The notes under the pieces are model-generated. The model did no database searches. It was not told the origin of the DNA and saw only the letters and a list, made by a program, of their open reading frames with translations. From IMG/VR virus record IMGVR_UViG_3300045988_018139: a DNA stretch of 45,605 nucleotides; one strand, given 5' to 3'. The DNA comes from a virus. The position numbers and the translations under genes are program-made. Positions 3,655-45,605 of this stretch are shown here, in pieces (the stretch's first letter is position 1; the number at the start of each line of letters is the position of its first letter).

Positions 3655-4335
3655 TCACTCCAAAATGCTTGTCCAGTATTCAAAGCGGGCCATGACCTTG
3701 CGGGAGTGTTCGGTGCTGTATGTACCAGACGCCCACAGAGATTGAGCGCCGGAGGGGCCGCAGTTGTAGGCCATGACGGCCAGCTCCGGCTCCCCGTAGG
3801 CGGTGAGGTAGTCACCCAGCAGCATGACACCGGCCTCAATGTTCCCGGTGTAGGTCATGGGGTCAATGCCTTGCTCCAAAAACCACCCATGATTGACCTG
3901 GTTGATTTGCATGAGGCCGTAGTCATTGGTGCCACTTGTGGCATCCGGGTCAAAACGGCTTTCCACGTCCGCCACGGCCAGGGCCAGAGCGTAGGGGACG
4001 CCGTACTCCTCGCAGCAGGCCTGCATGGTTTCCTGGAGGTCGTAGGCCAGGAGGTTGCCGTCCGTCACAATGTCATCCCGCCAGAGGACCGGCTCCTCCG
4101 TGGGAGCCGGTGTTGCCGTGGGGGTTTCCGTGGCCTCTGGGGTCGGGGTGGTGCTCTCCAGCACCGGCTCCGGGAGGGTCATGGCGGCCTGGCTGGTGTG
4201 CCTGCCAGTAAAGAAACCGGCGGCGAAAATGCCAGCGCACACCAGCGCCAGCACAATGACCGGGCCGTAGTTCGGGCGGCGTTTCCGCCTGGCCCGGTGA
4301 CGGGGGGCTCTCTGGCCATATTCACAGATGGTCAT
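3655..4335 (-). CDS. Membrane-anchored lytic transglycosylase (SLT domain)
   Basis: SLT catalytic signature VADVESRFDP...NDYGLMQIN is present. There is an N-terminal basic stretch plus a TM segment (PVIVLALVCAGIFAAGFF) and a Thr/Pro linker. The ATG at 4333-4335 is preceded by AAGGGGTG. Confidence 0.8.
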   Translation of the reverse strand: MTICEYGQRAPRHRARRKRRPNYGPVIVLALVCAGIFAAGFFTGRHTSQAAMTLPEPVLESTTPTPEATETPTATPAPTEEPVLWRDDIVTDGNLLAYDLQETMQACCEEYGVPYALALAVADVESRFDPDATSGTNDYGLMQINQVNHGWFLEQGIDPMTYTGNIEAGVMLLGDYLTAYGEPELAVMAYNCGPSGAQSLWASGTYSTEHSRKVMARFEYWTSILE

Positions 4336-4347
4336 GGAGTTCACCCC

Positions 4348-4932
4348 TTACTTGCCGATGCGGCGGAAAAGCTCCTCCGCCAGCTCACGGGTGCTGTACT
4401 GCTCCAGCGGGTTGCCCTCAACCTCCACGGTGTAATTGGAGGGGAGGAGGAAAGCGGGGCGGGACCCGAAGGTGAGGGTGCAGAGGCGGCCGCTGATGCT
4501 GCCATCGGAGTACAGCCCCATGACCCATGTGTCATCCTCATTGACCTTGGGGGTGCTCCAGGGCGTCACGGACCACTCAAAGCGCTCCGGGATGGGGATG
4601 ATGTCCGCATACTTGCGGAGCTCGTCCAGGGACAGCGGGGCCACCTTGCACTCACAGGTGCCGTACTCCTTAGAGCCGTTGAGGGCGGTGAGGTCCACGG
4701 TGCGGGTGATGACCTCATCGGGGTTGCCGTCCGTGAGGCTCCGCAGGTAGGGGCCGTTGAGGTGGGCCCGCAGGGAGCTGGATGCAAAGTTGTTGTCAGA
4801 GCCAAAGGCGTGGCTCATCTGCTCCAGGTGCAGGAGCAGGGTGCCGTCCTTGCGGTGCTCCAGCACCAGGCAGGGCTCCCCGTGGTAGTCCACGGTTTTG
4901 CCGGGGGCGATGTTCAAAAGAGCGGTTTTCAT
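4348..4932 (-). CDS. Stand-alone DGR target protein (DUF6273/C-type-lectin-like variable domain), carries VR2
   Basis: AAGGAGG lies 8 nt before the ATG at 4930-4932. The C-terminal WSTP...GLYSDGSISGRLCTLTFGSRPAFLLPS is paralogous to the VR1 region of 11491..13299. The nucleotide match to TR is described under the VR2 feature. Confidence 0.8.
   Translation of the reverse strand: MKTALLNIAPGKTVDYHGEPCLVLEHRKDGTLLLHLEQMSHAFGSDNNFASSSLRAHLNGPYLRSLTDGNPDEVITRTVDLTALNGSKEYGTCECKVAPLSLDELRKYADIIPIPERFEWSVTPWSTPKVNEDDTWVMGLYSDGSISGRLCTLTFGSRPAFLLPSNYTVEVEGNPLEQYSTRELAEELFRRIGK
4453..4519 (-). repeat. DGR variable region 2 (VR2), matches TR 14574-14640
   Basis: Hand alignment covers 67 bp with 15 mismatches. 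Every mismatch is at a plus-strand T of TR, which is A on the coding strand. It shares the GC-rich 3' end GGGTCCCGCCCCGCT with TR and VR1. Confidence 0.8.
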
Positions 4933-4945
4933 GGTGGTGTCCTCC

Positions 4946-5152
4946 TTACTGTTCGGTTTCGTCCTCATCATCGTCCCCGGAGATGTCAATGAGGTTTTCC
5001 GCCTGGACGATGATTTCAGAAACGATTTGACGGATGGGCAGGCCGGTCTTGAAACGGAGCCGCCGGACCACTTTTTCCGCCTCCGGGGTGAGCCGGACGG
5101 TGCCGATGCACTCATCGGAGCTTGTCCGGGTCCTCAAAATAATGGGTTTCAT
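4946..5152 (-). CDS. Small ribbon-helix-helix-like (CopG/Arc-type) protein with acidic tail (68 aa)
   Basis: AAGGAGG precedes the ATG at 5150-5152. The segment TVRLTPEAEKVVRRLRFKTGLPIRQIVSEII looks like beta-alpha-alpha. The gene is hidden inside a longer spurious listed ORF. Confidence 0.55.
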   Translation of the reverse strand: MKPIILRTRTSSDECIGTVRLTPEAEKVVRRLRFKTGLPIRQIVSEIIVQAENLIDISGDDDEDETEQ

Positions 5153-5201: not shown

Positions 5202-5444
5202 TCAGCGGCTCTGCTTTCCCCTCCGCTCAAGTTCCTGTTGCATCCTGAGCTGGGCAAGGGTAGCATCATACTGCAATCGCTGGTCCGGGAGGCGGACCCC
5301 AGAACGGCCCCGGCGCAGTTCCGTGTAGAGCGTGGACAGCGGCACATCAAGGGCCTCTGCCATGTCTTTGACCGTTTTGCCTTGCTCCCAAAGCTCCTGG
5401 AGTTCCTGCCGGGCCTGGAGCGTTGCGAAAGCGTAGCTCGCCAT
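5202..5444 (-). CDS. Small helix-turn-helix DNA-binding protein (80 aa)
   Basis: The segment GKTVKDMAEALDVPLSTLYTELRRG is HTH-like, resembling IS30/sigma region-4 type. AAGGAAG RBS is present. Confidence 0.6.
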   Translation of the reverse strand: MASYAFATLQARQELQELWEQGKTVKDMAEALDVPLSTLYTELRRGRSGVRLPDQRLQYDATLAQLRMQQELERRGKQSR

Positions 5445-5510
5445 GTTTTCACTTCCTTTCCTATGGGGTCAGGTTGTCTGGTGGGCTCCGCCTGAGCGGA
5501 GCCCGTTGAC

Positions 5511-6125
5511 TTATTTGCGCCATTCAGCACCCAGGAGGCCACAGATGGAGGTGGGGAGGTCAAAGGGGATGACCTTTTGCTCATTGCACTTGTCCAGCAT
5601 GGCGGTGATGCCCGCCAGCATCCAGTCATCAACATCCTCCTCACGGTCCGTGAGGATGTCCACCGCCTGGACAAGCTCTTTGATGCACTCCAGCATCACT
5701 TTGGCGTTGTTTTCAGCGGTGAGCACCATGCACTTTATCTGTCCATCATCGGGCTCGGCCTGCATGGCTTTGACGGCGGCATCCTCTTTTTCCTTGTTGG
5801 CCAGCTCCTTGACGTACTCCCCGGTAAACCAAAAGGTGACCCTCTGGAGCCGCTTGGCAAGTTTCTTGCGCTCATCACTGAGCTCCTGGGTGGGCTCCTG
5901 GGTGGGTTGCTCAATCCAGATGTTGACCGTTTCAAGGTGGCTGCTGTCCAGGTTTACCTCCAGCCGGTCACCCAGGTCACAGATGTAATCACAGTGGTGG
6001 CCCTCAGCAGTGCTCCGATAAACGGGGTAACCAGCCCGGCTGCTGCTGTGCTCATCCTTGACGTAATCAGTGGGGAAAATCTCATTGACTTTGTTCCAGG
6101 CCTCCTGCTTGCTGGTGACTTTCAT
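5511..6125 (-). CDS. Hypothetical acidic protein (204 aa)
   Basis: AAGGAGG precedes the ATG at 6123-6125. The N-terminal 70 aa of the listed ORF cross an AT-rich non-coding island and are rejected. Confidence 0.65.
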   Translation of the reverse strand: MKVTSKQEAWNKVNEIFPTDYVKDEHSSSRAGYPVYRSTAEGHHCDYICDLGDRLEVNLDSSHLETVNIWIEQPTQEPTQELSDERKKLAKRLQRVTFWFTGEYVKELANKEKEDAAVKAMQAEPDDGQIKCMVLTAENNAKVMLECIKELVQAVDILTDREEDVDDWMLAGITAMLDKCNEQKVIPFDLPTSICGLLGAEWRK

Positions 6126-6192
6126 GGTGCATCCTCCTTGATATAAAAGAAAAAAGATTAGCTCGCTGGCACCTTTCGGTGCCTGCAAACTA

Positions 6193-6221
6193 ATCTTAGT
6201 GCTTACCTGGCTAAAAGTCAA
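6193..6221 (-). promoter_or_regulatory. Putative sigma70-type promoter TTGACT-17-TAAGAT for 5511..6125
   Basis: The hexamers are read on the minus strand: -35 at 6216-6221 and -10 at 6193-6198, with a 17-nt spacer. Confidence 0.35.
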
Positions 6222-6265
6222 TAGAAATTTGCATAAAACAAGAAAAAACGGCAATCCGCACAAAT

Positions 6266-6290
6266 AAAAAGCGCCCCTATTGGGCGTTTT
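6266..6290 (-). terminator. Terminator-like hairpin after the transposase gene
   Basis: CGCCC-ctatt-GGGCG is flanked by an A-run and a T-run. On the minus strand it is followed by TTTTTATTT. Confidence 0.35.
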
Positions 6291-6313
6291 CACAACAAAA
6301 TAACATGGCAAGC

Positions 6314-6352
6314 CAGCCGGATGGGTAAATCCCATTCGGCTGCTTTTTCTTT
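6314..6352 (+). terminator. 12-bp-stem hairpin plus T-run, oriented as a plus-strand terminator facing the 3' end of the transposase gene
   Basis: The stem is CAGCCGGATGGG-taaat-CCCATTCGGCTG (one G-T pair), followed by CTTTTTCTTT. Confidence 0.4.
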
Positions 6353-6367
6353 ATGTGCCGCCAATCG

Positions 6368-7408
6368 TCAGGCGGTCAAGAGCTCTTTCTCAAAGAGCAT
6401 GGCCGCCGATTTCCACCCCAGCAGCTTGCGGGGGTAGTTGTTCACCCACCTCTCTGCCGCCCTCACCTCCTCCGGCTTTACGGTGTCAAAGCTGGTGCCC
6501 TTGGGGAAAAACCGTCTAATCAGCCGGTTCATGTTCTCATTGGACCCCCGCTCAAAGGCGCTGTATGGGTGGCAGAAAAACACAATGGTCCGCTTGCCCT
6601 TGCGCCGGTGGGCGGCCTCGATACCCTCGAAGTCTTGAAATTCGCAGCCGTTGTCCACCGTGATGCTCTTGAACAGCTTATAGAACAACTTGCCAAAACG
6701 GCGCTCCAGGCTGTTGATGGCCTTGACCACGCTGGCCGCCGTGTGGTCCTCCAGGAGCATCACAATGCCCATGCGGGTCCGGCGCTCGGTGAGGACCAGC
6801 AGGGCTTTTTTGGAGCCCTTGCATCCCATGATACTGTCCATCTCCCAATGGCCGAAACTGCCCCGGCCTTTGACCTCCTGGGGGCGGTTCTCAATGCTTT
6901 TCCCGTGGGAGCTCCGGGCGGCCTGCTGTCTGCTTTTGGCGGAGTAGTGGCGGCGGCCCTTATTGTGCAGATGCTCTGGGGTGAGGTGGAGGAACACGTC
7001 CCCACGGTAGATGTAATTATAGAGCGTGTTCTCACATATCACGGTGTTATAAACCTCACCGTTGTTGCGGATTTCCGCAAGGGCGGCTCCGGGGGCAAAG
7101 CCTTGAACCATGACCAGCTCCTCCAGCCGTTGGACCAGGGCGTGGTCTTTGCCAATCTTGAGGTCCCGGCCTTTTTCTTTGAGAAAATCCCGGTATTTTC
7201 GCTCTGCCACTTCCGGGCAGTAAACCTCAATAAACTCATATTCGGAGGTTTGCTGGATGCAGAGGCCCCGGTTGATTTCATAGTAGATGGACCGCTCACA
7301 CTTGCCCAGAGCGCTGGCAATGGCGGTTTTGGTAAAGCCTTTTTTGAGCATCCGCTCCAGGGTCAGGCGTTGGTCCCAGGTGAAATGCTTGGCGTCTTTA
7401 TGGTTCAT
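6368..7408 (-). CDS. IS30-family DDE transposase/integrase (346 aa)
   Basis: N-terminal HTH (GFTKTAIASALGKCERSIYYEINRG) and catalytic-core segments GHWEMDSI...ITVDNGCEF...RGSNENMNRLIRRFFPKG are typical of IS30 transposases. GGAGGTG RBS is present. Confidence 0.9.
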   Translation of the reverse strand: MNHKDAKHFTWDQRLTLERMLKKGFTKTAIASALGKCERSIYYEINRGLCIQQTSEYEFIEVYCPEVAERKYRDFLKEKGRDLKIGKDHALVQRLEELVMVQGFAPGAALAEIRNNGEVYNTVICENTLYNYIYRGDVFLHLTPEHLHNKGRRHYSAKSRQQAARSSHGKSIENRPQEVKGRGSFGHWEMDSIMGCKGSKKALLVLTERRTRMGIVMLLEDHTAASVVKAINSLERRFGKLFYKLFKSITVDNGCEFQDFEGIEAAHRRKGKRTIVFFCHPYSAFERGSNENMNRLIRRFFPKGTSFDTVKPEEVRAAERWVNNYPRKLLGWKSAAMLFEKELLTA

Positions 7409-9283: not shown

Positions 9284-10321
9284 TTACCCCACCAGAGTGA
9301 GGTCTTTGCTGTTGACGGCGGCGGTCACCACGCCGTTCTGGCCGATAACCACACGGGAGCCGTCCACCTGCATGACGGTGTAGGTGCCGGTGTAGACGAA
9401 AGAGGCCAGGGAGCCGCCGGTGTAGGTCTTGGCCCCTTTGTTGACCTTGACCTTGGAGCCCACGGTGATGGCCCCCTCCACCTGGATGTCCGCAGCATCC
9501 ACCCAGCCGTAGACGGTGGAGCCGCCGCCGGTGACTTTGATGAGGTGATAGGGGTGCTTGGCGTTCTTGGCAATGGCCGTGACCTTGGCCTTGCCGGGCT
9601 TGCAAGCGGAGCCGTTGGTGGCGTTGGAGCTCACATAGTGCTTGGTGCCGGTAAAGGTCACGGTGTCACCCACAGCGGCCTCCAGGGCGCTCCCAGAGGC
9701 CGGGGTGTCTTGGGACCCGCCCCCGGTGTTTCCGCCCGTGGAGGCCCCCGTGTAGTCCACATAGGGCAGCTTGCCGTGCTTGGTCCACCGGCGGGTGTTG
9801 TAACCAGACTTGCTGCCGATGTTGCCGACGGCGGTGATTTGGACCTTGTTCTCCCACTTGGGGGTACACTCCACCGCCAGGCCGTCCCCAATGTAGATGC
9901 CAATATGGCCGGACATCCAGACGGCCTCACCGATGACCATATCAGCCCAGCCGGTGGTGCTCACCCCGGTGCATTTGGTTATCATGGTATCAGCGCCGAT
10001 GTCCGGCACGCCGTTGACGGCGTAGCTGGCCCCGCCGTAGGTCTTGGCGGCGTTGCCGTTCCAGCCCCAGAGGATGCCTTTGATGAGGCAGACGCAATCA
10101 AAGCCATACACGGGCGGGCTCTGGTTGGCGGCGGCCTTAATCATGGCCGTGCGGGTGGCATCTTTGTTGTAGGAGTGGTTGTTGCAGTAGCGGCTCACGT
10201 TGGAGCCAGTCAGAGGTGCCCCAAAGCACCCCATGACATACAGCGTCTTGTAGTTCTTGGCGATGTCCACGGCCTTGTTGACAAGCTCCTGGGCAGTCAT
10301 TTTGCTCATACTATGTACCAT
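9284..10321 (-). CDS. Endolysin: NlpC/P60-type cysteine peptidase with two C-terminal SH3-like wall-binding repeats
   Basis: Catalytic Cys context FDCVCLIKG and His context GHIGIYIGDG are present. Two repeats of about 65 aa (…VTFTGTKHYV…GWVDAADI; …VKVNKGAKTY…AAVNSKDL) follow. The start may be the second ATG at 10309. Confidence 0.75.
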   Translation of the reverse strand: MVHSMSKMTAQELVNKAVDIAKNYKTLYVMGCFGAPLTGSNVSRYCNNHSYNKDATRTAMIKAAANQSPPVYGFDCVCLIKGILWGWNGNAAKTYGGASYAVNGVPDIGADTMITKCTGVSTTGWADMVIGEAVWMSGHIGIYIGDGLAVECTPKWENKVQITAVGNIGSKSGYNTRRWTKHGKLPYVDYTGASTGGNTGGGSQDTPASGSALEAAVGDTVTFTGTKHYVSSNATNGSACKPGKAKVTAIAKNAKHPYHLIKVTGGGSTVYGWVDAADIQVEGAITVGSKVKVNKGAKTYTGGSLASFVYTGTYTVMQVDGSRVVIGQNGVVTAAVNSKDLTLVG

Positions 10322-10327
10322 CCTTTC

Positions 10328-10573
10328 TCAGTCTTTCAGCACGATTTCAGCGATGCGGACAGCGACATCCGCCCCATACTTATCCGCAAACTGCTTGAGA
10401 AACCGCTGGGCGTATTTGGCCCGGTTTTCGTTTTTGGCTTTCCAGAAATAGAAACCGCCCCAGGCCCCGTTGGTCAAAAGAGAGGCCCCGGCCAGGCCAG
10501 CCAGGGCCGTGACATCAAAGCCCAGATAATTGGTGACGATGGTGGCCACGCACAGCATGACGGAGATGGTCAC
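10328..10573 (-). CDS. Class-II holin-like protein (2 TM, charged C-terminus)
   Basis: Two hydrophobic helices are followed by KAKNENRAKYAQRF. It lies directly upstream of the endolysin. The start codon is uncertain (GTG at 10573 or ATG at 10558) and no clear RBS is seen. Confidence 0.55.
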   Translation of the reverse strand: MTISVMLCVATIVTNYLGFDVTALAGLAGASLLTNGAWGGFYFWKAKNENRAKYAQRFLKQFADKYGADVAVRIAEIVLKD

Positions 10574-10602
10574 ATGGGCCCAGAGCAGCTTTTTTGAGGT
10601 GT

Positions 10603-10680
10603 CTATTTTTCACGCCCTCCTTTCCAGTCCCTCCAGAGGATTTCAACCATGCCCAGCAGGGCCAGGAAAAACAGCCTCAT
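10603..10680 (-). CDS. Possible 25-aa membrane peptide (MRLFFLALLGMVEILWRDWKGGREK)
   Basis: It is not in the ORF track because it is too short. GAGG lies 8 nt upstream of the ATG at 10678-10680, and it fills the gap between two lysis-cassette genes. Confidence 0.3.
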   Translation of the reverse strand: MRLFFLALLGMVEILWRDWKGGREK

Positions 10681-11032: not shown

Positions 11033-11491
11033 TTACTCGCTGGCCTCAGTCCAGCCATAGACGCCGGGCTCCCAGACATTGCCGTCAAGGTCAGAGGTCC
11101 AATGCTTGCTGTTATGGCTCACCTTGGCCCCTGCTGCATAGGCATCATGGGACCCCAGCGGCTGGCTCCAGGCGGGCCACTCCTCCGCAGGGTCACTGGT
11201 GATGGACCACAGGGAGGCGGCATTGGGCGGCTCCCATCCCGTCTGGGAGGTGTGGGCCTGCACGCAGCGGTAGAGCTTGCCCTCATACTGCCGGAGCTGG
11301 CCCACGGTGTAGTTGACATTGGCCGCCCATTCGGAAAAGAGGCTGGCTTGTTCGGATGCGGTAATGTCGTCAATGCTCCCGGCCTCTGCCAGCACCACAA
11401 AGGCGATGGCGGCGGCGTCATTGCGCTGCTGTTCGTAGCGCTGGGCCTCATGGAGTTCCTTGAGGCTGGTGGTCTTGGTCTTGATAGCCAT
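11033..11491 (-). CDS. Protein with two CBM5/12-like carbohydrate-binding repeats
   Basis: YTVGQLRQYEGKLYRCVQAHTSQTGWEPPNAASLW and AGAKVSHNSKHWTSDLDGNVWEPG resemble chitin-binding type-3/CBM5_12 repeats. A TAATG overlap links it to the upstream gene. Confidence 0.65.
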   Translation of the reverse strand: MAIKTKTTSLKELHEAQRYEQQRNDAAAIAFVVLAEAGSIDDITASEQASLFSEWAANVNYTVGQLRQYEGKLYRCVQAHTSQTGWEPPNAASLWSITSDPAEEWPAWSQPLGSHDAYAAGAKVSHNSKHWTSDLDGNVWEPGVYGWTEASE

Positions 11492-13299
11492 TACTGAAAA
11501 GCACCTCCGATGTTGGAAATGTAGCCGCCGGTGTTGCTGGACCCCCGGCTCACAGTGACCTTGAAATTAAAGGCAAAGCCGTTGGTGGCGGTCTGGTTGG
11601 TGAAAACGTGGTTGTTGCCGTTCTTCACGTCCTGGGTGGCGTCCTCCCAGACGGGCTCCGTGTCGTTGGCGTTGTTGGTCACCAGCACCTCCAGGTCAGC
11701 ATCCGCCGGGATGGAGCCCAGGATGTTGAGCACCATGACCGTGATGGTGTCATCGGCGTCCAGGGGCTCCGCCAGGGTGATGGAGGCCTCATAGACTGCC
11801 TTGGTAAAGGTCACGGTGTAGGGGGTGCTGTCCGCTTTGCCGTCATTGGCCACCACCTTGATGGTGTGCTGGCCGTTGAGAACCTTTTGCCAGTTGGCGG
11901 CGGTGACACACTGGACGGTGTTGCTCTGCTCCAGGGTGGCGGTATAGGTCCGCTTGAGCACGTCATCCAGATACTCTTTGACCGTCACGGTGTCCCCGTC
12001 TGCATCGTCCACGGAGTAGGTCAGGTCAAAGCCCTCCGTCTTGGTCCCCAAATCGGAGCCGGAGGCCGTGGAGCTGGTGATGGTGGGGAGGTTGTTGTTG
12101 TCAACCGTCCGGGTTTCGCTGGTCACATAGGAGCTGGTGGAGTTGTAGGTGTCGTAGGCCCGGACACGATAGGCCACCGTGTTCCACCCGGAGGTGATGG
12201 TGTCCGTGTAGGCCAGGCCGCTGCCCTTGTAAATCTGGGTCCAGGAGCCGCCGTCCACTTGCCGCTCCAGCTCATAGCCGCTGAGGTTGCCGTCACTGTC
12301 AGAGGCCTGGGTCCAGGAGATGGCCAGGTTGCTGCCGCCACGGACAACAGCGGGGACGGTGATGCTGCCGGGAGCGCCGGGGGCCCGGTTGTTCGTGACC
12401 GTCACGGTGCTGCTGGTACGCCAGCCGCTCTCAAGCCCGGCGCTGTCATAGGCCTTGACCCGGTAGGCCACGCTTTCTGTGCCAAAGGCCACGGTGTTGC
12501 TGGTGCTGGTGGCGCTGCCCTGGTAGATTTGGGACCAGGAGCCGCCGTCCGTCTGGCGCTCTACAATGTAGCCCTCAAGGTTGTCCTCAGCGTCCGTGGA
12601 GGCCGCCCAGCTCACTGTGATGCTGGTGCCGCCGTTGATGCTCTGGGGGACGGAAATGCTGGCGGGCGTAGACGGGGCGGTGTTCTGAAACACAGAGCCG
12701 TCATCGCTCACATAGAGGGAGGAGGGGAGAGTGAAAGCGGGGCGGGACCCGTCGGTGCCGGTGCAGTAGTTGTCGTAGATGTTGCCATTGGAGTACAGCC
12801 TCCAGGCGACGCCGGTGCTGTTCGTGTACGGGGAGCGGGTCCATTGAGTGGTGGCGCTGCCCCCTTGATAGGCGATTTGTAAAGTGGACGCAATGGGCAG
12901 GGCGGAGCCCTCCACGTTGGCGTAGGTGTGAGATTGCCCCAGCTCGGTGAGGGACAGCAGGAAAACAGCATCGGACCGGGTGGTGACGGTGTTGTTACCG
13001 TTGCCCGGCGTGTAGCGGTAGGTGGTGGTGCCCATCGCCTCCTGGATGTCGGCGTCCAGCAGCGCTTTATAGGTGCTGTTCAGCCAGGACCGCATGGTGC
13101 AGCTTGCCCAGGCGTTCACGTTGGAGCTGTGCCAGGCCCGCTGGTCATACACGTCCTTGCGGACCACCAGGGTCCTCCCGGCTCCGTTGAGCGATTGCTC
13201 ATAGTTGTGGCAGGCAACATAGAAGTCAACCAGCGTGCCGTTTTCTTTCAGCTTGATAATACTGCCGGTTGCCTTATTGCCCAGGGTGGTTGTGGCCAT
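11491..13299 (-). CDS. DGR target 1: fibre/receptor-binding-like protein (DUF6273/CLec-like variable domain, two FN3-like repeats, C-terminal domain)
   Basis: VR1 lies at codons 155-188. Two FN3-like repeats of about 95 aa follow (…ITVSWAASTDAEDNLEGYIVERQTDGGSW… and …LAISWTQASDSDGNLSGYELERQVDGGSW…). AAGGAGG RBS is present, and a TAATG overlap links it to the RT gene. Confidence 0.85.
   Translation of the reverse strand: MATTTLGNKATGSIIKLKENGTLVDFYVACHNYEQSLNGAGRTLVVRKDVYDQRAWHSSNVNAWASCTMRSWLNSTYKALLDADIQEAMGTTTYRYTPGNGNNTVTTRSDAVFLLSLTELGQSHTYANVEGSALPIASTLQIAYQGGSATTQWTRSPYTNSTGVAWRLYSNGNIYDNYCTGTDGSRPAFTLPSSLYVSDDGSVFQNTAPSTPASISVPQSINGGTSITVSWAASTDAEDNLEGYIVERQTDGGSWSQIYQGSATSTSNTVAFGTESVAYRVKAYDSAGLESGWRTSSTVTVTNNRAPGAPGSITVPAVVRGGSNLAISWTQASDSDGNLSGYELERQVDGGSWTQIYKGSGLAYTDTITSGWNTVAYRVRAYDTYNSTSSYVTSETRTVDNNNLPTITSSTASGSDLGTKTEGFDLTYSVDDADGDTVTVKEYLDDVLKRTYTATLEQSNTVQCVTAANWQKVLNGQHTIKVVANDGKADSTPYTVTFTKAVYEASITLAEPLDADDTITVMVLNILGSIPADADLEVLVTNNANDTEPVWEDATQDVKNGNNHVFTNQTATNGFAFNFKVTVSRGSSNTGGYISNIGGAFQ
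12736..12835 (-). repeat. DGR variable region 1 (VR1), matches TR 14574-14673
   Basis: Hand alignment covers 100 bp with 13 mismatches. All are at plus-strand T of TR, which is coding-strand A and mostly falls in AAC codons. Confidence 0.9.
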
Positions 13300-14327
13300 T
13301 AGATTTCCTCCTTTAGAATGTTCTGCACACGGTCCCGCACCTGCTGGCGCAGGGACCAGGTGTTGCCGTGAGCGGCGTGGGCGTCCCAGGCCTGCCAGCT
13401 TTGCAGGATTTTCTCACGGGTCACAAGGCCCGCTGGATAGTCCTGCTCCCACCGGCGGAGCTTGGAGCGCATACGCTTGATGCTGCTGTGCCGCAGCTTG
13501 CGGATGACCTTGCCCTCCTCGGTCAGATAGGTGTGAAAGCCCAGAAAATCAATCCCATTGCGGATGGGGAAAATCTGGGTTTTCTCATTGAGCTCCAGCC
13601 CCAGGCTGGCCATAAAGGCCCGGATTTCCTTGAGGCAAAATTGCAAGTAGGCCTTGTCCGGGTGGATGAGGAAAAAGTCATCCATGTAACGGCCATACCA
13701 GCGGATGCGGAGCTTTTCTTTGACAAAGTGGTCAAATTCATCCAGGAACAGCAGGGCAAAAAGCTGGCTGGTTTGATACCCCAGCGGCAGCCCGTCCGTG
13801 CTGTCTATGTAGGTACACAGCAGGTCATAGACAATGGGCTCAAGGTCCAGCTTTTTGAGCTTTTCCTTGAGCCGGTCATGGTCTATGGAGGCGAAAAAGT
13901 GCCGCACATCTGCCTTGAGGACCCAGCCCTCCGATGTGCGGTATTTGTTCCAGTATTCCGTGAAAAATCCACGCAGCCGGTCCAGGCCGAAGTGGAGCCC
14001 TTTGCCTTTCTGGGATGCGTAGTTGTCCAGGATGAAACTGTTGGTAATCCGCTCATAGATGAGGTTATCCACCAATGCGTGCTGGACCACTTTGTCAACA
14101 AAAGCCGGGGCCTGCACAAGCCTTTTCTTTGGCTCGTAGGCATAGAACACCCGGAACAGCCCCGGCCTGTAAATCTTGGTTTGCAGGATGTAGACCAGGT
14201 TGACGATGTTGGCCAGCAGGTGGACCTCATAGTGTGCGGTGGCGGCCCTGGAGCGCTTGCCCCGCCTGGCCGCCAAATAGGCCTTGTAGAGCACCGCAAA
14301 GGTGCATATCTGTGAAAATTTAAGCAC
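13299..14327 (-). CDS. DGR reverse transcriptase
   Basis: RT motifs are present, including RYMDDF (YxDD box) and the DGR-typical LPLGYQTSQ ([I/L]GxxxSQ). TR is immediately upstream and avd is adjacent. The listed start is GTG. Confidence 0.9.
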   Translation of the reverse strand: MLKFSQICTFAVLYKAYLAARRGKRSRAATAHYEVHLLANIVNLVYILQTKIYRPGLFRVFYAYEPKKRLVQAPAFVDKVVQHALVDNLIYERITNSFILDNYASQKGKGLHFGLDRLRGFFTEYWNKYRTSEGWVLKADVRHFFASIDHDRLKEKLKKLDLEPIVYDLLCTYIDSTDGLPLGYQTSQLFALLFLDEFDHFVKEKLRIRWYGRYMDDFFLIHPDKAYLQFCLKEIRAFMASLGLELNEKTQIFPIRNGIDFLGFHTYLTEEGKVIRKLRHSSIKRMRSKLRRWEQDYPAGLVTREKILQSWQAWDAHAAHGNTWSLRQQVRDRVQNILKEEI

Positions 14328-14573
14328 GGGTTTTGCACCCCTGAGAAAACATACGGGCGGCCCCCTGTCAGTCCGGCGGCGGGCCTCCCTCTCCTTGTGC
14401 GCCGTGTAGGTGCCGCAGGGACAGGACCAGTAGCACCCCGCCGCCTCATAGTGCGGTGGGGTGCATCAGCGCAATGTATTTGCCTTGAGCTCAAGGCTGG
14501 ATGTGACCTCCTTTGATGTGATGGATAGCGCTGCTTTCGGCTTTGGGCCTACTCGGTCGGGCCTTACCATCAG

Positions 14574-14673
14574 AGCGGGGCGGGACCCGTTGGTGTTGGT
14601 GCAGTTGTTGTTGTTGATGTTGCCATTGGAGTTCAGCCTCCAGGCGTTGTTGGTGTTGTTCGTGTTCGGGGAG
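14574..14673 (-). repeat. DGR template repeat (TR), non-coding
   Basis: On the minus strand it is rich in AAC triplets (…AACACGAACAACACCAACAAC…AACATCAACAACAACAAC…). It matches VR1 and VR2 except at adenines. It lies between avd and the RT. Confidence 0.9.
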
Positions 14674-14733
14674 GTAGGGGAAAATAAACAGGTCACACCC
14701 AAATACACGGCCTTGGTGGCCGTTGTATCTGAT

Positions 14734-15282
14734 TTAATGGGGCCGCAGGGCCTCCGCCATTTGCAGGGCCATTTGCCCCATCTTGGCAAGCTCCTGGGCC
14801 GCTTTGGCCTCCCGGAGAGCGGCGGCACGGTTGCCGTCCGATTTTCTCCAGTTGAAGGCCTTTTGCCGGACCGGGCGCACCAGCTCCGCCCAATAGTGGC
14901 ATTGGTCGCCGGTGATGTATTTCTTTTTGAAACTGAGGTTGATGAGCTGGCCCATGGTTTCACACTCAATGAGCACCCCGTCCAGGTCCTTGAGCCGTTC
15001 CTCATACTCGGTTTCAAAATAGCGCCCATTGGCGGCCACGCAGCCCTTGAGGATGCGGATGGCACAGCCCTGGAGCTCGGCACACAGGTGGAAAGCCTGG
15101 CTCTTTGGAAAATGCGGCTTTCCCACGTCCTGCACTTTCTCATAGAGGGTTTTCTCCACCATCTGGCCGTTTTCCATCACATAGGCCTTTGTGCGCCTGT
15201 ATTCCGGGTCTTTCTGCTTGACCCGCTGGATGGTGTACTCCAGCAAATCAGAGGCAAGAGGGATGATGTCATAGCTTGGCAT
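14734..15282 (-). CDS. avd: DGR accessory variability determinant (Avd-like four-helix-bundle protein)
   Basis: Its position directly upstream of TR-RT fits Avd. The helical protein has an Avd-like FPKSQAFHLCAELQGCAIRILKGCVAAN segment and a basic C-terminal segment (NWRKSDGNR). At 182 aa it is longer than classical Avd. Confidence 0.7.
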   Translation of the reverse strand: MPSYDIIPLASDLLEYTIQRVKQKDPEYRRTKAYVMENGQMVEKTLYEKVQDVGKPHFPKSQAFHLCAELQGCAIRILKGCVAANGRYFETEYEERLKDLDGVLIECETMGQLINLSFKKKYITGDQCHYWAELVRPVRQKAFNWRKSDGNRAAALREAKAAQELAKMGQMALQMAEALRPH

Positions 15283-16019
15283 TAAAACTCAATCCTCGCA
15301 TACGTTTCATTCCAGACGCCCGTGACCACCAGCCCGGTGAGGGTTTCAAAGGTCACCTCAAAGCTGTTGCCGGTCACGTTGGTGCCATATTTCAGCTCAA
15401 GGGTGGAGAGGCGGCTGTCTATGCCCGCCATGGTCACACGGATGTCTGGGTGGGAGTTGGTGTCGGTGTCGTGTTCGGAAACGGCGTCCACAATGTCCTG
15501 GCGGATGTCGGCATGGCTTGCGGGGTCCGTGTTGTGTTCGGCAATGGCCGCCTCCAGGTCCTCCGGGCTCACCGTGTCCAGGGACGCCGTGACGGTAAAC
15601 TCCAGCACGGAGCTGTCCACCACAACGATGTGCATGAGCATGGTGAGCCGCCCGTCCACGCCGGTGGAGATTGCCACCTTTTCCGTGTCCGGGGTGTTGC
15701 AGATGGCAATGAGGGTGCCGTCCTCATCAAAGAGGCCCATTTCACGGACAATGAAGTTGCCCACGCTGTCATCAATGATGATTTTCACGTCCATCATGTT
15801 GGGCACCGTGGGGTTTTGCTCCGCAGACACGATGGGACCCCGCCACAGCTCCCGCACAAGCTCAGTCTGCTCCGTGCTGGGCACATAGTAGCTGCCCCCG
15901 CCGTCACCGGCGGCGGCCTGGGTGATTTTCAGCTTGGTCCCTGCCAAAATGCAGTTGGTAATGAGGGTGGCCCCTGCCGTGGTGATTTTAGTGCCGTATT
16001 TTCTCTCCTGGTCAGGCAT
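15282..16019 (-). CDS. Tail fibre protein (N-terminal collar-type domain plus His-box fibre repeats)
   Basis: N-terminus TKITTAGATLITNCILAGTKLKITQAAAGDGGG is present. The motif EHxTDxxSHxDIR occurs twice. The ATG at 16017-16019 overlaps the upstream stop. Confidence 0.7.
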   Translation of the reverse strand: MPDQERKYGTKITTAGATLITNCILAGTKLKITQAAAGDGGGSYYVPSTEQTELVRELWRGPIVSAEQNPTVPNMMDVKIIIDDSVGNFIVREMGLFDEDGTLIAICNTPDTEKVAISTGVDGRLTMLMHIVVVDSSVLEFTVTASLDTVSPEDLEAAIAEHNTDPASHADIRQDIVDAVSEHDTDTNSHPDIRVTMAGIDSRLSTLELKYGTNVTGNSFEVTFETLTGLVVTGVWNETYARIEF

Positions 16020-16653
16020 TTTCGCTTTCCTCCTGTTCGTATGGATAAATCTCAAGTTTGGCGTGCCATTCAATGGGCCCGGCCCCGATGACGCCGCCGG
16101 AGCTCTCCAGCTCATTGGTGAGCATCGGCCACAGGTCCATGTGCAGGGAGCGCTCCGTGTAGGCCCCCAGCCGGACGCCGCCGGCGGATTGCAAAAGGGC
16201 CGTCATCATAATCAGGATGTTGGCGGGGCGCACCGTCAGCAGCATGTCAAGGATTTCCTCCGCCATGCGGCCCGGCTCCGGCAGCACCGTGTAGTCAAGC
16301 TGGATGTCCAGGGTGTAGTCCTGGAGAGATACGGCATGACCATCCGGGCCACATAGGCCGTCCAGCCAGTTCCGCAGCCAGCGCATGGTGTAGGGCAATT
16401 CCAAATTCCACTTGGCTTTGATGCGGGCCTTGCGGGCCTCCAGGGTGTCTGTGTCTTTGGGATAGAGCCGCAGCTCTTGCTCCCACACAGCCACGCCGTT
16501 CTCATCGGCGTCCTCCAGGAATTGATTGGCCAGCACCAGGGCCATGGCATCCCAGGCCAGGGAGATTTCCGGCTCATTGGCCCCGTTGATGGTCTGAAAC
16601 TCCAGCGCCTCCCGGAGCACCGGGGGGAGATAGTCTAAAAGGCGTCTATCCAT
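16012..16653 (-). CDS. XkdU/DUF2313-like baseplate/tail protein
   Basis: N-terminus LLDYLPPVLREALEFQTI and the position after baseplate J fit this family. Confidence 0.65.
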   Translation of the reverse strand: MDRRLLDYLPPVLREALEFQTINGANEPEISLAWDAMALVLANQFLEDADENGVAVWEQELRLYPKDTDTLEARKARIKAKWNLELPYTMRWLRNWLDGLCGPDGHAVSLQDYTLDIQLDYTVLPEPGRMAEEILDMLLTVRPANILIMMTALLQSAGGVRLGAYTERSLHMDLWPMLTNELESSGGVIGAGPIEWHAKLEIYPYEQEESENA

Positions 16654-43623: not shown

Positions 43624-45605
43624 TTAGTCTTTGGTAAAGTAGTAGCCCACCCAGCCAGCCGCCTTGAGCGGCAGGTCAGGGGCCCAGGGGACCGGCTCCC
43701 CCATGATGGAGCAGACGGTGCCCAGCATGGCGTCCTCCGTGTCCCAGGGGGCCACATCAATGACCACCTCGTCATGGACGTGGAACACCACCGGGAGCCC
43801 GGCGGCCTCCAGCCGGTCAATGGACAGGGCCAGGCAGTCACGGGCAATGGCCTGGACGCAGTTCTCCACCAGCTTGCCGCCGTAGGTTTCAATGCGTTTC
43901 CACCGTTTGGTTTTCTGGTCCATGCCCATGTAGGAGATGGAGGGCCGCCCCCATTCGTTCTGGCCAATGCTGGGGCTGATATAGTAGAGCTTGCGGTCAG
44001 AGGGGAGCCGGATGGTGAGGCAGTCCACGCCGTTGTCATAGTCATACTCACGGGCCAGCAGCAGGCCGTTGACGCCCACGCTGCCGCCCTCGGTGATGAC
44101 CTGGACGGCGGCATTGTCCATGGAATACCACAGGTCACGGATGCGCTTGTTGGCCTCCCGCCAGCGGCTCACGATGTCCGGCAGCTCCTCCTCAGTGAGC
44201 CCCATGTCCAGGGCTCCCATGGTGATGAGGGCCCCGGTGCTGCCCTGGTAGCCCAGGGCCAGCTCTGCCACCTTGCCCTTTTGCCGGAGCGCATACTCTG
44301 GATTGCCCTTTTTGATGAGCTCCAGAGGCACCCCAAACATCTGGGAGGCAGAGGCCTCATAGATTTTGCCGTGGGTGCGGAACACCTCCAGCCGCCATTG
44401 TTCCTTGGCCAGCCATGAGATGACACGGGCCTCAATGGCGGAAAAGTCGGCGTCAATCAGTACATGGCCCTCCGGGGCCACAAAGGCCGTGCGGATGAGC
44501 TGGCTGAGGGTGTCGGGCACGCTGCCATAGATGAGCCGCAGGGCATCCAGCTTGCGGGCCTTGACCAGCTCACGGGCCAGGTCCAGCGGCTCCGTGTAGG
44601 TCCGGGGCAGGTTTTGCACCTGCACCAGCCGCCCGGCCCAGCGCCCGGTCCTGTTCGCTCCGTAAAACTGGAGCAGGCCCCGGACACGTCCATCCGCACA
44701 GACAGCGGCCTCAATGGCGTCATATTTCTTGGTGGAGGTCTTGCCCAGCTCTTGGCGTATCTCCAGCATCCGGCTCACCTGGGGGCTGTTATCGTCCCGG
44801 CCCAGCAGGCGGGCAACGGTGTCTTTTCTCAGGTCGGCCAGCTCCTCACCAATTTCCTCCTGGAGCCAGGTGGTGAGCTGGGCCACGCTGTTGGGGTTGG
44901 ACAGGCCGGAGAGCTGCATGGCCTCCGCCATGAGCGTCTGGCGCACGGTGTCCCCCAGATAGAGGGCCCCGGTGACCAGCTCCAGGTCCACGGCCACGCC
45001 CCTGGCGTTGATGATGAGGTCGGTTTCCCATTGCTTTTGCACCCAATCCGGGACCGGGAAAGCGGAGAGCCGCCGCTCAATCTCCATTTCCGTCACCACG
45101 TCCTGCTTGCAGTATTCTTTGAAAAGCTCCCATTTGGCGGGGTCATGCTGGGGCAGGTTGCGGGTCCTCTGGCCGTTGGCCTTGGAGGGCTTGCAGGGGA
45201 TGCAGAAATAGCGGATGAGCGCCTTGCCGGTGTTGAGCTTTTGCTTGTCCTGGGGGAGCCCCAGGGCCTTGCCGGTGGCGTCCAGGCCTGCCGTGTAGCC
45301 GCAATAGAGGCCGTGGAACATGGTGCAGCGCCATTGGTCCGGCGGCAGGGTGCCCATGAATTTGGAGAGGCAGCCCCACTCAAAGGGGGCGTTGTAGGCG
45401 TGCTTGATGTACTCCGGGCTGGTGATGGCCTGGACCAGCCACGGGGGGAGCCGTTCCCCCCGTGCCAGGTCGATGATTTCAACAGGCGCACCATCCAGGC
45501 TGAACGCAAAGAGCAGGATTTCAAAGTCCGGGCTCTGGATGTATTTCTGGGCACCGGCCTTTGCCAGCGGCACGCTGGAATAGGTTTCAAGGTCAATGCT
45601 GAGAT
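43624..45605 (-). CDS. Family-A DNA polymerase with 3'-5' exonuclease domain (gene completed at 78..84 across the circular junction, about 662 aa)
   Basis: The ExoI motif IDLETYS is seen only when the junction is read through. Also present are RTGRWAGRLVQVQNLP (motif A region) and HVHDEVV (motif C). Confidence 0.9.
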   Translation of the reverse strand, partial: LSIDLETYSSVPLAKAGAQKYIQSPDFEILLFAFSLDGAPVEIIDLARGERLPPWLVQAITSPEYIKHAYNAPFEWGCLSKFMGTLPPDQWRCTMFHGLYCGYTAGLDATGKALGLPQDKQKLNTGKALIRYFCIPCKPSKANGQRTRNLPQHDPAKWELFKEYCKQDVVTEMEIERRLSAFPVPDWVQKQWETDLIINARGVAVDLELVTGALYLGDTVRQTLMAEAMQLSGLSNPNSVAQLTTWLQEEIGEELADLRKDTVARLLGRDDNSPQVSRMLEIRQELGKTSTKKYDAIEAAVCADGRVRGLLQFYGANRTGRWAGRLVQVQNLPRTYTEPLDLARELVKARKLDALRLIYGSVPDTLSQLIRTAFVAPEGHVLIDADFSAIEARVISWLAKEQWRLEVFRTHGKIYEASASQMFGVPLELIKKGNPEYALRQKGKVAELALGYQGSTGALITMGALDMGLTEEELPDIVSRWREANKRIRDLWYSMDNAAVQVITEGGSVGVNGLLLAREYDYDNGVDCLTIRLPSDRKLYYISPSIGQNEWGRPSISYMGMDQKTKRWKRIETYGGKLVENCVQAIARDCLALSIDRLEAAGLPVVFHVHDEVVIDVAPWDTEDAMLGTVCSIMGEPVPWAPDLPLKAAGWVGYYFTKD

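Follow-up and report, generated by a model that had tools for sequence, protein, structure and literature searches.

The window analysed here is the whole 45,605-nucleotide (nt) sequence of the virus record IMGVR_UViG_3300045988_018139 (IMG/VR). Its minus strand carries a diversity-generating retroelement (DGR), which consists of an avd gene, a template repeat (TR), a structured spacer, a reverse transcriptase (RT) gene and a coupled target gene containing a variable repeat (VR1). A second target gene, with a shorter repeat (VR2), lies at a distance from the cassette. The features are listed below, with positions as in the window and lengths of proteins in amino acids (aa).

14734..15282, minus strand: avd, 182 aa; its start overlaps the stop codon of the tail fibre gene (TAATG)
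14574..14673, minus strand: TR, 100 nt, with 34 adenines; read in the frame of the VR, 14 AAC codons and 1 AAT codon
14328..14573, minus strand: spacer (Sp) RNA region, 246 nt, from the TR to the RT start; conserved multi-helix fold
13299..14327, minus strand: DGR reverse transcriptase, 342 aa, GTG start; motifs LGYQTSQ and YMDD
11491..13299, minus strand: target 1 ('tentaclin'), 602 aa; N-terminal DUF6273 domain with VR1, two Fn3 repeats and a C-terminal Hoc-like/Ig region
12736..12835, minus strand: VR1, 100 nt, residues 156-188 of target 1
12736..12750, minus strand: 3' end of VR1, resembling an initiation of mutagenic homing (IMH) site, 15 nt (GGGTCCCGCCCCGCT), GC-rich and adenine-free
4348..4932, minus strand: target 2, 194 aa, DUF6273-like domain only; probable ATG at 4932 with AAGGAGG ahead of it
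4453..4517, minus strand: VR2, 65 nt, TR offsets 35-100, residues 200-221 of the long open reading frame (ORF) 4348-5115

A preliminary description of the locus, made from the sequence alone, had proposed a DGR with the parts avd, TR, structured spacer, RT and coupled target in this order. Each part was tested with a positive result, and the coordinates and minus-strand orientation of avd, RT and target 1 were reproduced by the ORF list. Overlaps of the form TAATG occur at three junctions (tail fibre/avd, RT/target 1 and target 1/next gene); the second of these had been noted before and is present in the junction sequence. The DGR is embedded in the late operon through these overlapping stop and start codons.

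Template repeat, variable repeats and targets

The segments 14574-14673 and 12736-12835 were returned by a repeat finder as the top direct repeat (100 nt, 87% identity). When aligned on the coding strand, TR and VR1 differ at 13 of 100 positions, and all 13 are adenines in the TR (hypergeometric P = 1.3e-7 with 34 A in the TR). The substitutions are A to G (8) and A to T (5). All fall at position 1 or 2 of AAC codons and yield Tyr, Ser, Gly, Val or Asp. The same 13 mismatches, with the same replacements of Asn codons, had been reported in the preliminary description and were recovered base for base; no substitution at a position other than adenine was found in VR1 by the computational alignment. 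The abrupt ends of the homology, also reported earlier, were located by alignment at CTCCCCG on the 5' side and after ...CCCGCCCCGCT on the 3' side.

An adenine-tolerant scan of the whole window revealed a third copy of the TR at 4453-4517 on the minus strand. This copy, VR2, differs from the TR at 14 positions, all 14 of which are TR adenines, with no mismatch at the 44 other positions (P = 1.9e-9). At TR offsets below 35 the VR2 locus has no nucleotide similarity to the TR. VR2 (65 nt) and VR1 (100 nt) are repeats of different length templated by one TR. Besides its adjacent target, the element therefore has a remote one, 8.3 kb downstream and beyond the lysis genes. The adjacent target of the preliminary description stands, while its reading of a single target was incomplete because VR2 had been left out. 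In theory, VR1 could give about 1e20 protein variants and VR2 about 1e12.

The adenine-free 15-mer GGGTCCCGCCCCGCT is identical at the ends of the TR (14574-14588), VR1 (12736-12750) and VR2 (4453-4467). Past the 15-mer the flanks differ, with CTGATGG after the TR and TTCnCTC after the VRs, a pattern that is kept in relatives.

Target 1 matches Pfam DUF6273 at residues 41-193 (5e-25), which places VR1 at the C-terminal end of the domain, yet in the N-terminal third of the protein. The profile phrog_9958 covers residues 36-200, and phrog_10993, 'Hoc-like head decoration', matches the protein with an E-value of 1e-170. Two tandem Fn3 repeats follow the DUF6273 domain (about residues 208-353) and match the Fn3 domains of titin (A77-A78) and FN3con. 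Target 1 shares 55% identity along the full length with the Hoc-like protein of the Faecalibacterium phage FP_Brigit and 45-48% with target 1 of the gut phage nd4 over the C-terminal two-thirds (48%, E 6e-79, for residues 300-601). The best fold match of a moderate-confidence model of the N-terminal domain was the T. ramosa IgA peptidase 9qa6 (E 2.4e-6), the N-terminal domain of which is itself a DUF6273 domain.

Most close homologues of the N-terminal domain are proteins of 208-217 aa. The idea that target 1 arose by a frameshift or assembly fusion of a protein of about 208 aa with a Hoc-like gene was rejected, since fused forms are also encoded in each of MT835552, FP_Brigit and nd4. The exact 602-aa target had no record in the assembly index. 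MT835552 (locus L004) has the same cassette, and its target is otherwise collinear but is only 407 aa long, with both Fn3 repeats (window 12088-12689, 600 nt; corresponding site in L004 at 6606-6621) missing en bloc; this shows variation in domain number inside one lineage.

A stand-alone 208-aa protein that is 81% identical to the N-terminal domain of target 1 was found at 10001-10627 of locus L001 (ENA ERZ24773225 NODE_1475) and also in L002 and L003. These are unrelated, podovirus-like contigs with a P22-like portal and Terminase_3. The VR-equivalent of L001 has 25 mismatches to the window TR, 24 of them at TR adenines. Neither an RT nor a TR was found within the 20.6 kb examined of these contigs, and searches of the GenBank phage set and IMG/VR yielded no relatives of them. 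The L001 target either belongs to a DGR elsewhere in the 41.5-kb contig or is an orphan target, possibly diversified in trans.

VR2 sits close to the target 2 gene's 3' end. The encoded protein covers the whole profile of phrog_9958 (1.6e-39) and has a weak match to Pfam DUF6273 (2e-4). It is 33% identical to the N-terminal domain of target 1 (E 9e-13), 33% identical to target 2 of nd4 and 36.5% identical to gp06 of FP_Brigit. A gene for a small helix-turn-helix (HTH) regulator (5202-5444) lies just upstream of target 2, which is itself located upstream of an SLT transglycosylase gene and of recombination and replication genes. In FP_Brigit and nd4 target 2 is likewise found off the tail module, past the lysis and regulator genes. 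The SLT lytic transglycosylase gene directly downstream (3655-4344, minus strand) is an odd neighbour for a putative receptor-binding protein.

Reverse transcriptase, spacer RNA and Avd

The RT carries the [LIV]GxxxSQ-type motif (LGYQTSQ) and YMDD; the translation reads LPLGYQTSQ and RYMDD, in line with the motifs named in the preliminary description. Among solved structures the best match was the DGR RT of phage BPP-1 (8ub7, E 1.4e-32), compared with 2e-8 at best for group II intron and retron RT structures. The protein matched Pfam RVT_1 (6e-19) and phrog_1423 (2.8e-116), and is 54% identical to the RT of FP_Brigit and 43% identical to that of nd4. Models of group II intron, Drt3a and retron RTs gave weak matches, all far below their curated cut-offs (e.g. 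90 bits vs 300), and an identity as a retron, group II intron or defence RT was rejected on these scores. Motif and similarity scores thus support a placement of the enzyme with the DGR RTs.

The spacer was aligned for 22 relatives and a consensus fold was computed with RNAalifold. The consensus contains 59 pairs, 28 of them with compensatory changes. Paired cells made up 93.9%, against 33-47% when the partners were slid. The covariation score was 0.276, compared with 0.132 in shuffles, and was reached by none of 500 shuffles. Support is good for four hairpins and one long-range helix. The structured spacer of the preliminary description is thus a conserved fold with covariation support. A near-invariant motif, AAAGGAGG, which resembles a ribosome-binding site, is located in the spacer at 14482-14493 on the minus strand and is predicted to pair with GCCCC at the 3' end of the TR. 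This predicted pairing, of GCCCC with an invariant GGAGG in the spacer, is plausible; covariation gives it no support because both sides are invariant. A search of the cassette against Rfam matched no family, and scans of the cassette for tRNA genes, promoters and terminators gave nothing informative.

The Avd protein matched phrog_3206, 'Avd protein of DGR' (2e-21). An AlphaFold2 (AF2) model (pLDDT 84) is a four-helix bundle with a helix at residues 6-21, a beta-hairpin at 28-49 and helices at 62-85, 89-119 and 125-179, the last of which is very long. Foldseek placed the model with the 2gsc/2rld family (prob 1.0) and with the Avd of BPP-1 (bAvd; 4dwl and chains B-E of 8ub7; prob 0.95-0.97, TM to target 0.75-0.85). 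The PHROG match and the predicted fold together support the identity as Avd.

As stated in the preliminary description, the protein is about 50 aa longer than usual (182 aa vs 132 aa in nd4). The beta-hairpin that the model inserts between helices 1 and 2 would explain this excess. The long form is real, because 182-183 aa is the modal length in a set of 213 related proteins, in which the N-terminus does not vary. The Avd of FP_Brigit also has a long N-terminal region, whereas the 132-aa Avd of nd4 lacks the N-terminal helix and beta-hairpin extension. The annotated 264-aa 'Avd' coding sequence (CDS) of FP_Brigit (locus L164, 3694-4488) runs through the TR of that phage (locus 4362-4489) and is probably over-extended, because the reading frame covers the TR. 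Several database relatives of the window Avd with 262-263 aa may be over-extended likewise.

Relatives, known systems and interpretation

A search with the RT yielded 157 related loci, drawn from genomes and from contigs of viruses; the loci compared here carry numbers with the prefix L. For prophage copies the named hosts belong to the Oscillospiraceae and their allies, namely Dysosmobacter (95% RT identity), Acutalibacter, Flintibacter, Butyricicoccus and Vescimonas. Comparison of the cassette with GenBank phages by megablast gave only MT835552, with 79% identity. Self-comparison of the close loci produced 72 distinct TR/VR pairs, with 1110 mismatches at TR adenines and 20 elsewhere. A remote VR2 of 56-66 nt was present wherever the flank was long enough (L085, L117, L124, L126, L127, L139 and L149).

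Among the relatives L085 is nearest to the window, with 98.76% identity across 18.1 kb and a TR that is 100% identical. VR1 differs between the two at 15 positions, all of which are TR-A positions, against a background of about 1.2 differences per 100 nt; VR2 also differs at TR-A positions only. Since the TR is identical and the VRs differ only at A sites, both repeats have diversified recently in this population, and at both targets the comparison of the two sequences shows the signature that recent mutagenic homing leaves in a population.

The direction of transfer is recorded in other relatives. Lineage-specific changes in the TR's adenine-free 3' end reappear in both VR1 and VR2 of L126, L127, L012 and L017; the variants copied to both VRs are GGGTCCCGTCCCGCT in L126 and GGGTCTCGTCCCGCT in L127. 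The presence of these TR changes in both VRs shows one-way transfer from TR to VR. The same loci keep the TR flank (CTGATGG) and the VR flank (TTCnCTC...CCCCTC) distinct.

DGRs with two targets have been described in the gut phages nd4 and nd12 (OR777945, OR777946; Baykov et al. 2023, PMC10743442). Their target 1, termed 'tentaclin', has 313-649 aa with the VR close to the gene's 5' end, and is built from an N-terminal DUF6273/C-lec domain, 1-4 Ig/Fn3 domains and a conserved C-terminal Ig anchor with a seven-residue consensus (PMC10743442). Target 2 of these phages is small, has DUF6273 as its only domain and carries a shorter VR2 (PMC10743442). A lectin fold has been published for homologues of the target 1 N-terminal domain. 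The window target 1 agrees with this class in its 602 aa, its VR-bearing N-terminal DUF6273 domain and its two Fn3 domains. The gene order of nd4 is that of the window (tail fibre, avd, TR, RT, target 1, lysis genes, and target 2 about 8-9 kb downstream). Further likenesses to nd4 and nd12 are the AAC-rich TR and a target 1 with VR1 in an N-terminal DUF6273 domain, Ig/Fn3 domains and a homologous C-terminal region, the putative anchor. Differences from nd4 are seen in the low identities (RT 43%, target 1 45-48% in the C-terminal part, target 2 33%, Avd 23%), and the window TR has 34 adenines, compared with the reported 25 in nd4 and 28 in nd12.

The closest named relative is FP_Brigit (NC_047909; Cornuault et al. 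2018), with identities of 54% for the RT, 55% for target 1 and 36.5% for gp06 against target 2. Its order of tail fibre, Avd, RT, Hoc-like protein and lysis genes is as in the window. The gp06 gene lies just past the HTH regulator genes. The record lists its product simply as a hypothetical protein; an 80-nt VR2 was detected in the gene directly. FP_Brigit differs in its 61.7-kb genome, its other replication module and an Avd identity of 29%. The Faecalibacterium phages Lelie/Toutatis and CP11 each have a large and a small DUF6273 target, with the VRs at the C-terminal end of DUF6273, and A-site variation at both VRs was reported in cognate genomes of CP11 (PMC11792537). Their target 1 is 41-43% and their target 2 28% identical to those of the window; the phage backbones differ.

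Compared with BPP-1 (mtd-avd-TR-brt), the window shares adenine-specific transfer from TR to VR, an RT with [LIV]GxxxSQ and YMDD, an Avd with a four-helix bundle, a structured spacer between TR and RT, and a VR at the end of a domain that in the window is putatively lectin-like. The BPP-1 spacer is about 140 nt long, compared with 246 nt in the window. The window differs in that its target is downstream and not upstream of the RT, that there are two targets, that VR1 is internal to a 602-aa protein, that no clear GC-rich hairpin follows the VRs and that Avd is about 50 aa longer. The preliminary description had set a target downstream of the RT apart from the classical BPP-1 order; this position, with a VR in the 5' part of a long gene, is a published hallmark of tentaclin-type DGRs (PMC10743442, PMC11792537). 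The order avd-TR-RT-target, the VR near the start of a long gene and a second small target with a shorter VR have all been published already, for nd4 and nd12 and for Faecalibacterium phages such as Lelie. Relative to the described members, the RT and target 1 of the window (43-55% identity), the length of Avd and the number of Fn3 repeats differ.

The element is very probably a functional tentaclin-type two-target DGR in the late operon of a gut myovirus, with adenine-mutagenised complementary DNA (cDNA) of the TR rewriting both VR1 and VR2. The avd-TR-spacer-RT region would be transcribed, and the RT with a pentameric Avd would reverse-transcribe the TR RNA, probably primed from the structured spacer as in BPP-1. 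Copying would be faithful save at adenines. The mutagenised cDNA would then replace VR1 in the N-terminal DUF6273 (putatively C-type-lectin-like) domain of the tentaclin, and also VR2, 8.3 kb away, through only the 3' 65 nt of homology. The common adenine-free, GC-rich 15-mer at the VR ends would serve as the homing anchor, and the diversified domains of both targets would presumably bind ligands.

Several observations weigh against this interpretation. A hairpin of the BPP-1 type was sought 3' of VR1 and VR2, and just stems of 5-6 bp were found 11-43 nt downstream, not common to both. The TR/VR pairs of the relatives had been gathered with a filter of at least 80% A, which inflates the ratio of 1110 to 20 somewhat. 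Avd scored below the cut-offs of Pfam bAvd (22.5 bits) and NCBIfam DivGenRetAVD (26.4 bits), and bAvd was not found in sequence and profile searches of the PDB. The model of the N-terminal domain of target 1 is of moderate quality (pLDDT 65, pTM 0.69), with weak matches to C-type lectins. Finally, activity of the window's own copy is inferred from the comparison with relatives.

The last point, together with the missing convincing hairpin or cruciform downstream of the VRs, would also fit a decayed DGR in which TR/VR pairs and ORFs persist while mutagenic homing has been lost in this copy. Such decay is improbable, as the ORFs are all intact and translationally coupled, the catalytic motifs are present, and the identical TR and A-site-only differences of both VRs in L085 point to turnover since a very recent common ancestor. 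It is still less probable that VR1 is the sole real target and that VR2 reflects ordinary homology of two DUF6273 domains. The domains are indeed homologous (33% identity), and the sequences downstream of both VRs are alike (TTCnCTCnCCCCTCC). Outside the 65 nt, however, no nucleotide alignment of the two genes is possible, whereas within VR2 every non-A position (44/44) matches the TR and every difference (14/14) is on an A. VR2 also follows the lineage-specific TR substitutions in L126 and L127, differs from that of L085 at A sites only, and has published counterparts in the shorter VR2s of nd4 and nd12. A non-DGR RT (from a retron, a group II intron or a defence system such as DRT/Abi) beside a coincidental repeat is hardly credible: its sub-threshold matches are those that any RT would give and remain far under the curated cut-offs, the BPP-1 DGR RT leads the solved relatives by 24 orders of magnitude in E-value, the enzyme carries the [LIV]GxxxSQ motif and the mismatches are adenine-specific.

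With the two-target DGR taken as functional, the window adds a well-resolved and apparently recently active member to the tentaclin-type two-target DGRs of gut Oscillospiraceae phages, and leaves the current picture of DGR biology unchanged. Its value to specialists lies in the 34 mutable TR adenines, the direction from TR to VR at both targets across dozens of relatives, the covariation-backed spacer fold, the conserved 182-aa Avd with its predicted beta-hairpin insertion, and the recurrent placement of the small target off the structural genes. The main questions for the field are the ligands of the tentaclin and of the small target and the place of both proteins in virion or cell. It is conceivable, albeit rather unlikely, that target 2 is not a virion receptor-binding protein but an early-expressed, non-structural binding protein. 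In that case one DGR would diversify both a late virion adhesin and an early non-structural binding protein, and target 2 might work at the surface of the host, serve in superinfection exclusion or counter the host's defences, a class of target so far without experimental demonstration for phage DGRs.

Genome context

Positions 1-77 of the window are identical to 45529-45605. This terminal identity of 77 nt indicates a circular assembly (k=77 overlap) in which the phage genome, about 45.5 kb long, is complete. Its genes are those of a small gut myovirus, which probably infects an Oscillospiraceae bacterium.

In the order of transcription, the minus strand begins with DNA polymerase A, a methylase, ThyX, a VapE primase and an SNF2 helicase. 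Terminase, portal, capsid, sheath, tube, tape measure and baseplate genes and the tail fibre gene follow. Next are the DGR cassette with target 1, a CBM_5_12 protein, holin and endolysin, then HTH regulators with an integrase/transposase containing an rve domain, the small HTH gene and target 2. After target 2 are located the SLT transglycosylase, a DUF2800 nuclease and SSB. The two genes that border the cassette are as follows.

15282..16115, minus strand: tail fibre gene, directly upstream of the cassette; Pfam Phage_tail_fib 5.5e-37
11033..11491, minus strand: CBM_5_12 protein, 152 aa, Pfam CBM_5_12 5e-17; TAATG-coupled to target 1, membership of the cassette uncertain

The preliminary description had the DGR 'inserted' between tail fibre and lysis genes. 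Insertion is not demonstrated, because the position of the cassette is identical in nd4 and FP_Brigit. The CBM_5_12 gene next to target 1 is absent from the equivalent place in both of these phages.

A 346-aa protein with HTH_38 and an rve integrase core (below the Pfam cut-off) is encoded at 6368-7408 on the minus strand. It is IS30-like and could be a phage integrase or belong to a resident insertion sequence. About 720 nt of the window (5461-6181, in ORF 5511-6335, minus strand) are replaced by 57 nt in L085. This ORF has no convincing family match and a GC content at third codon positions (GC3) of 0.66, lower than that of its neighbours; the segment 5461-6181 may be a site of variable cargo (moron).

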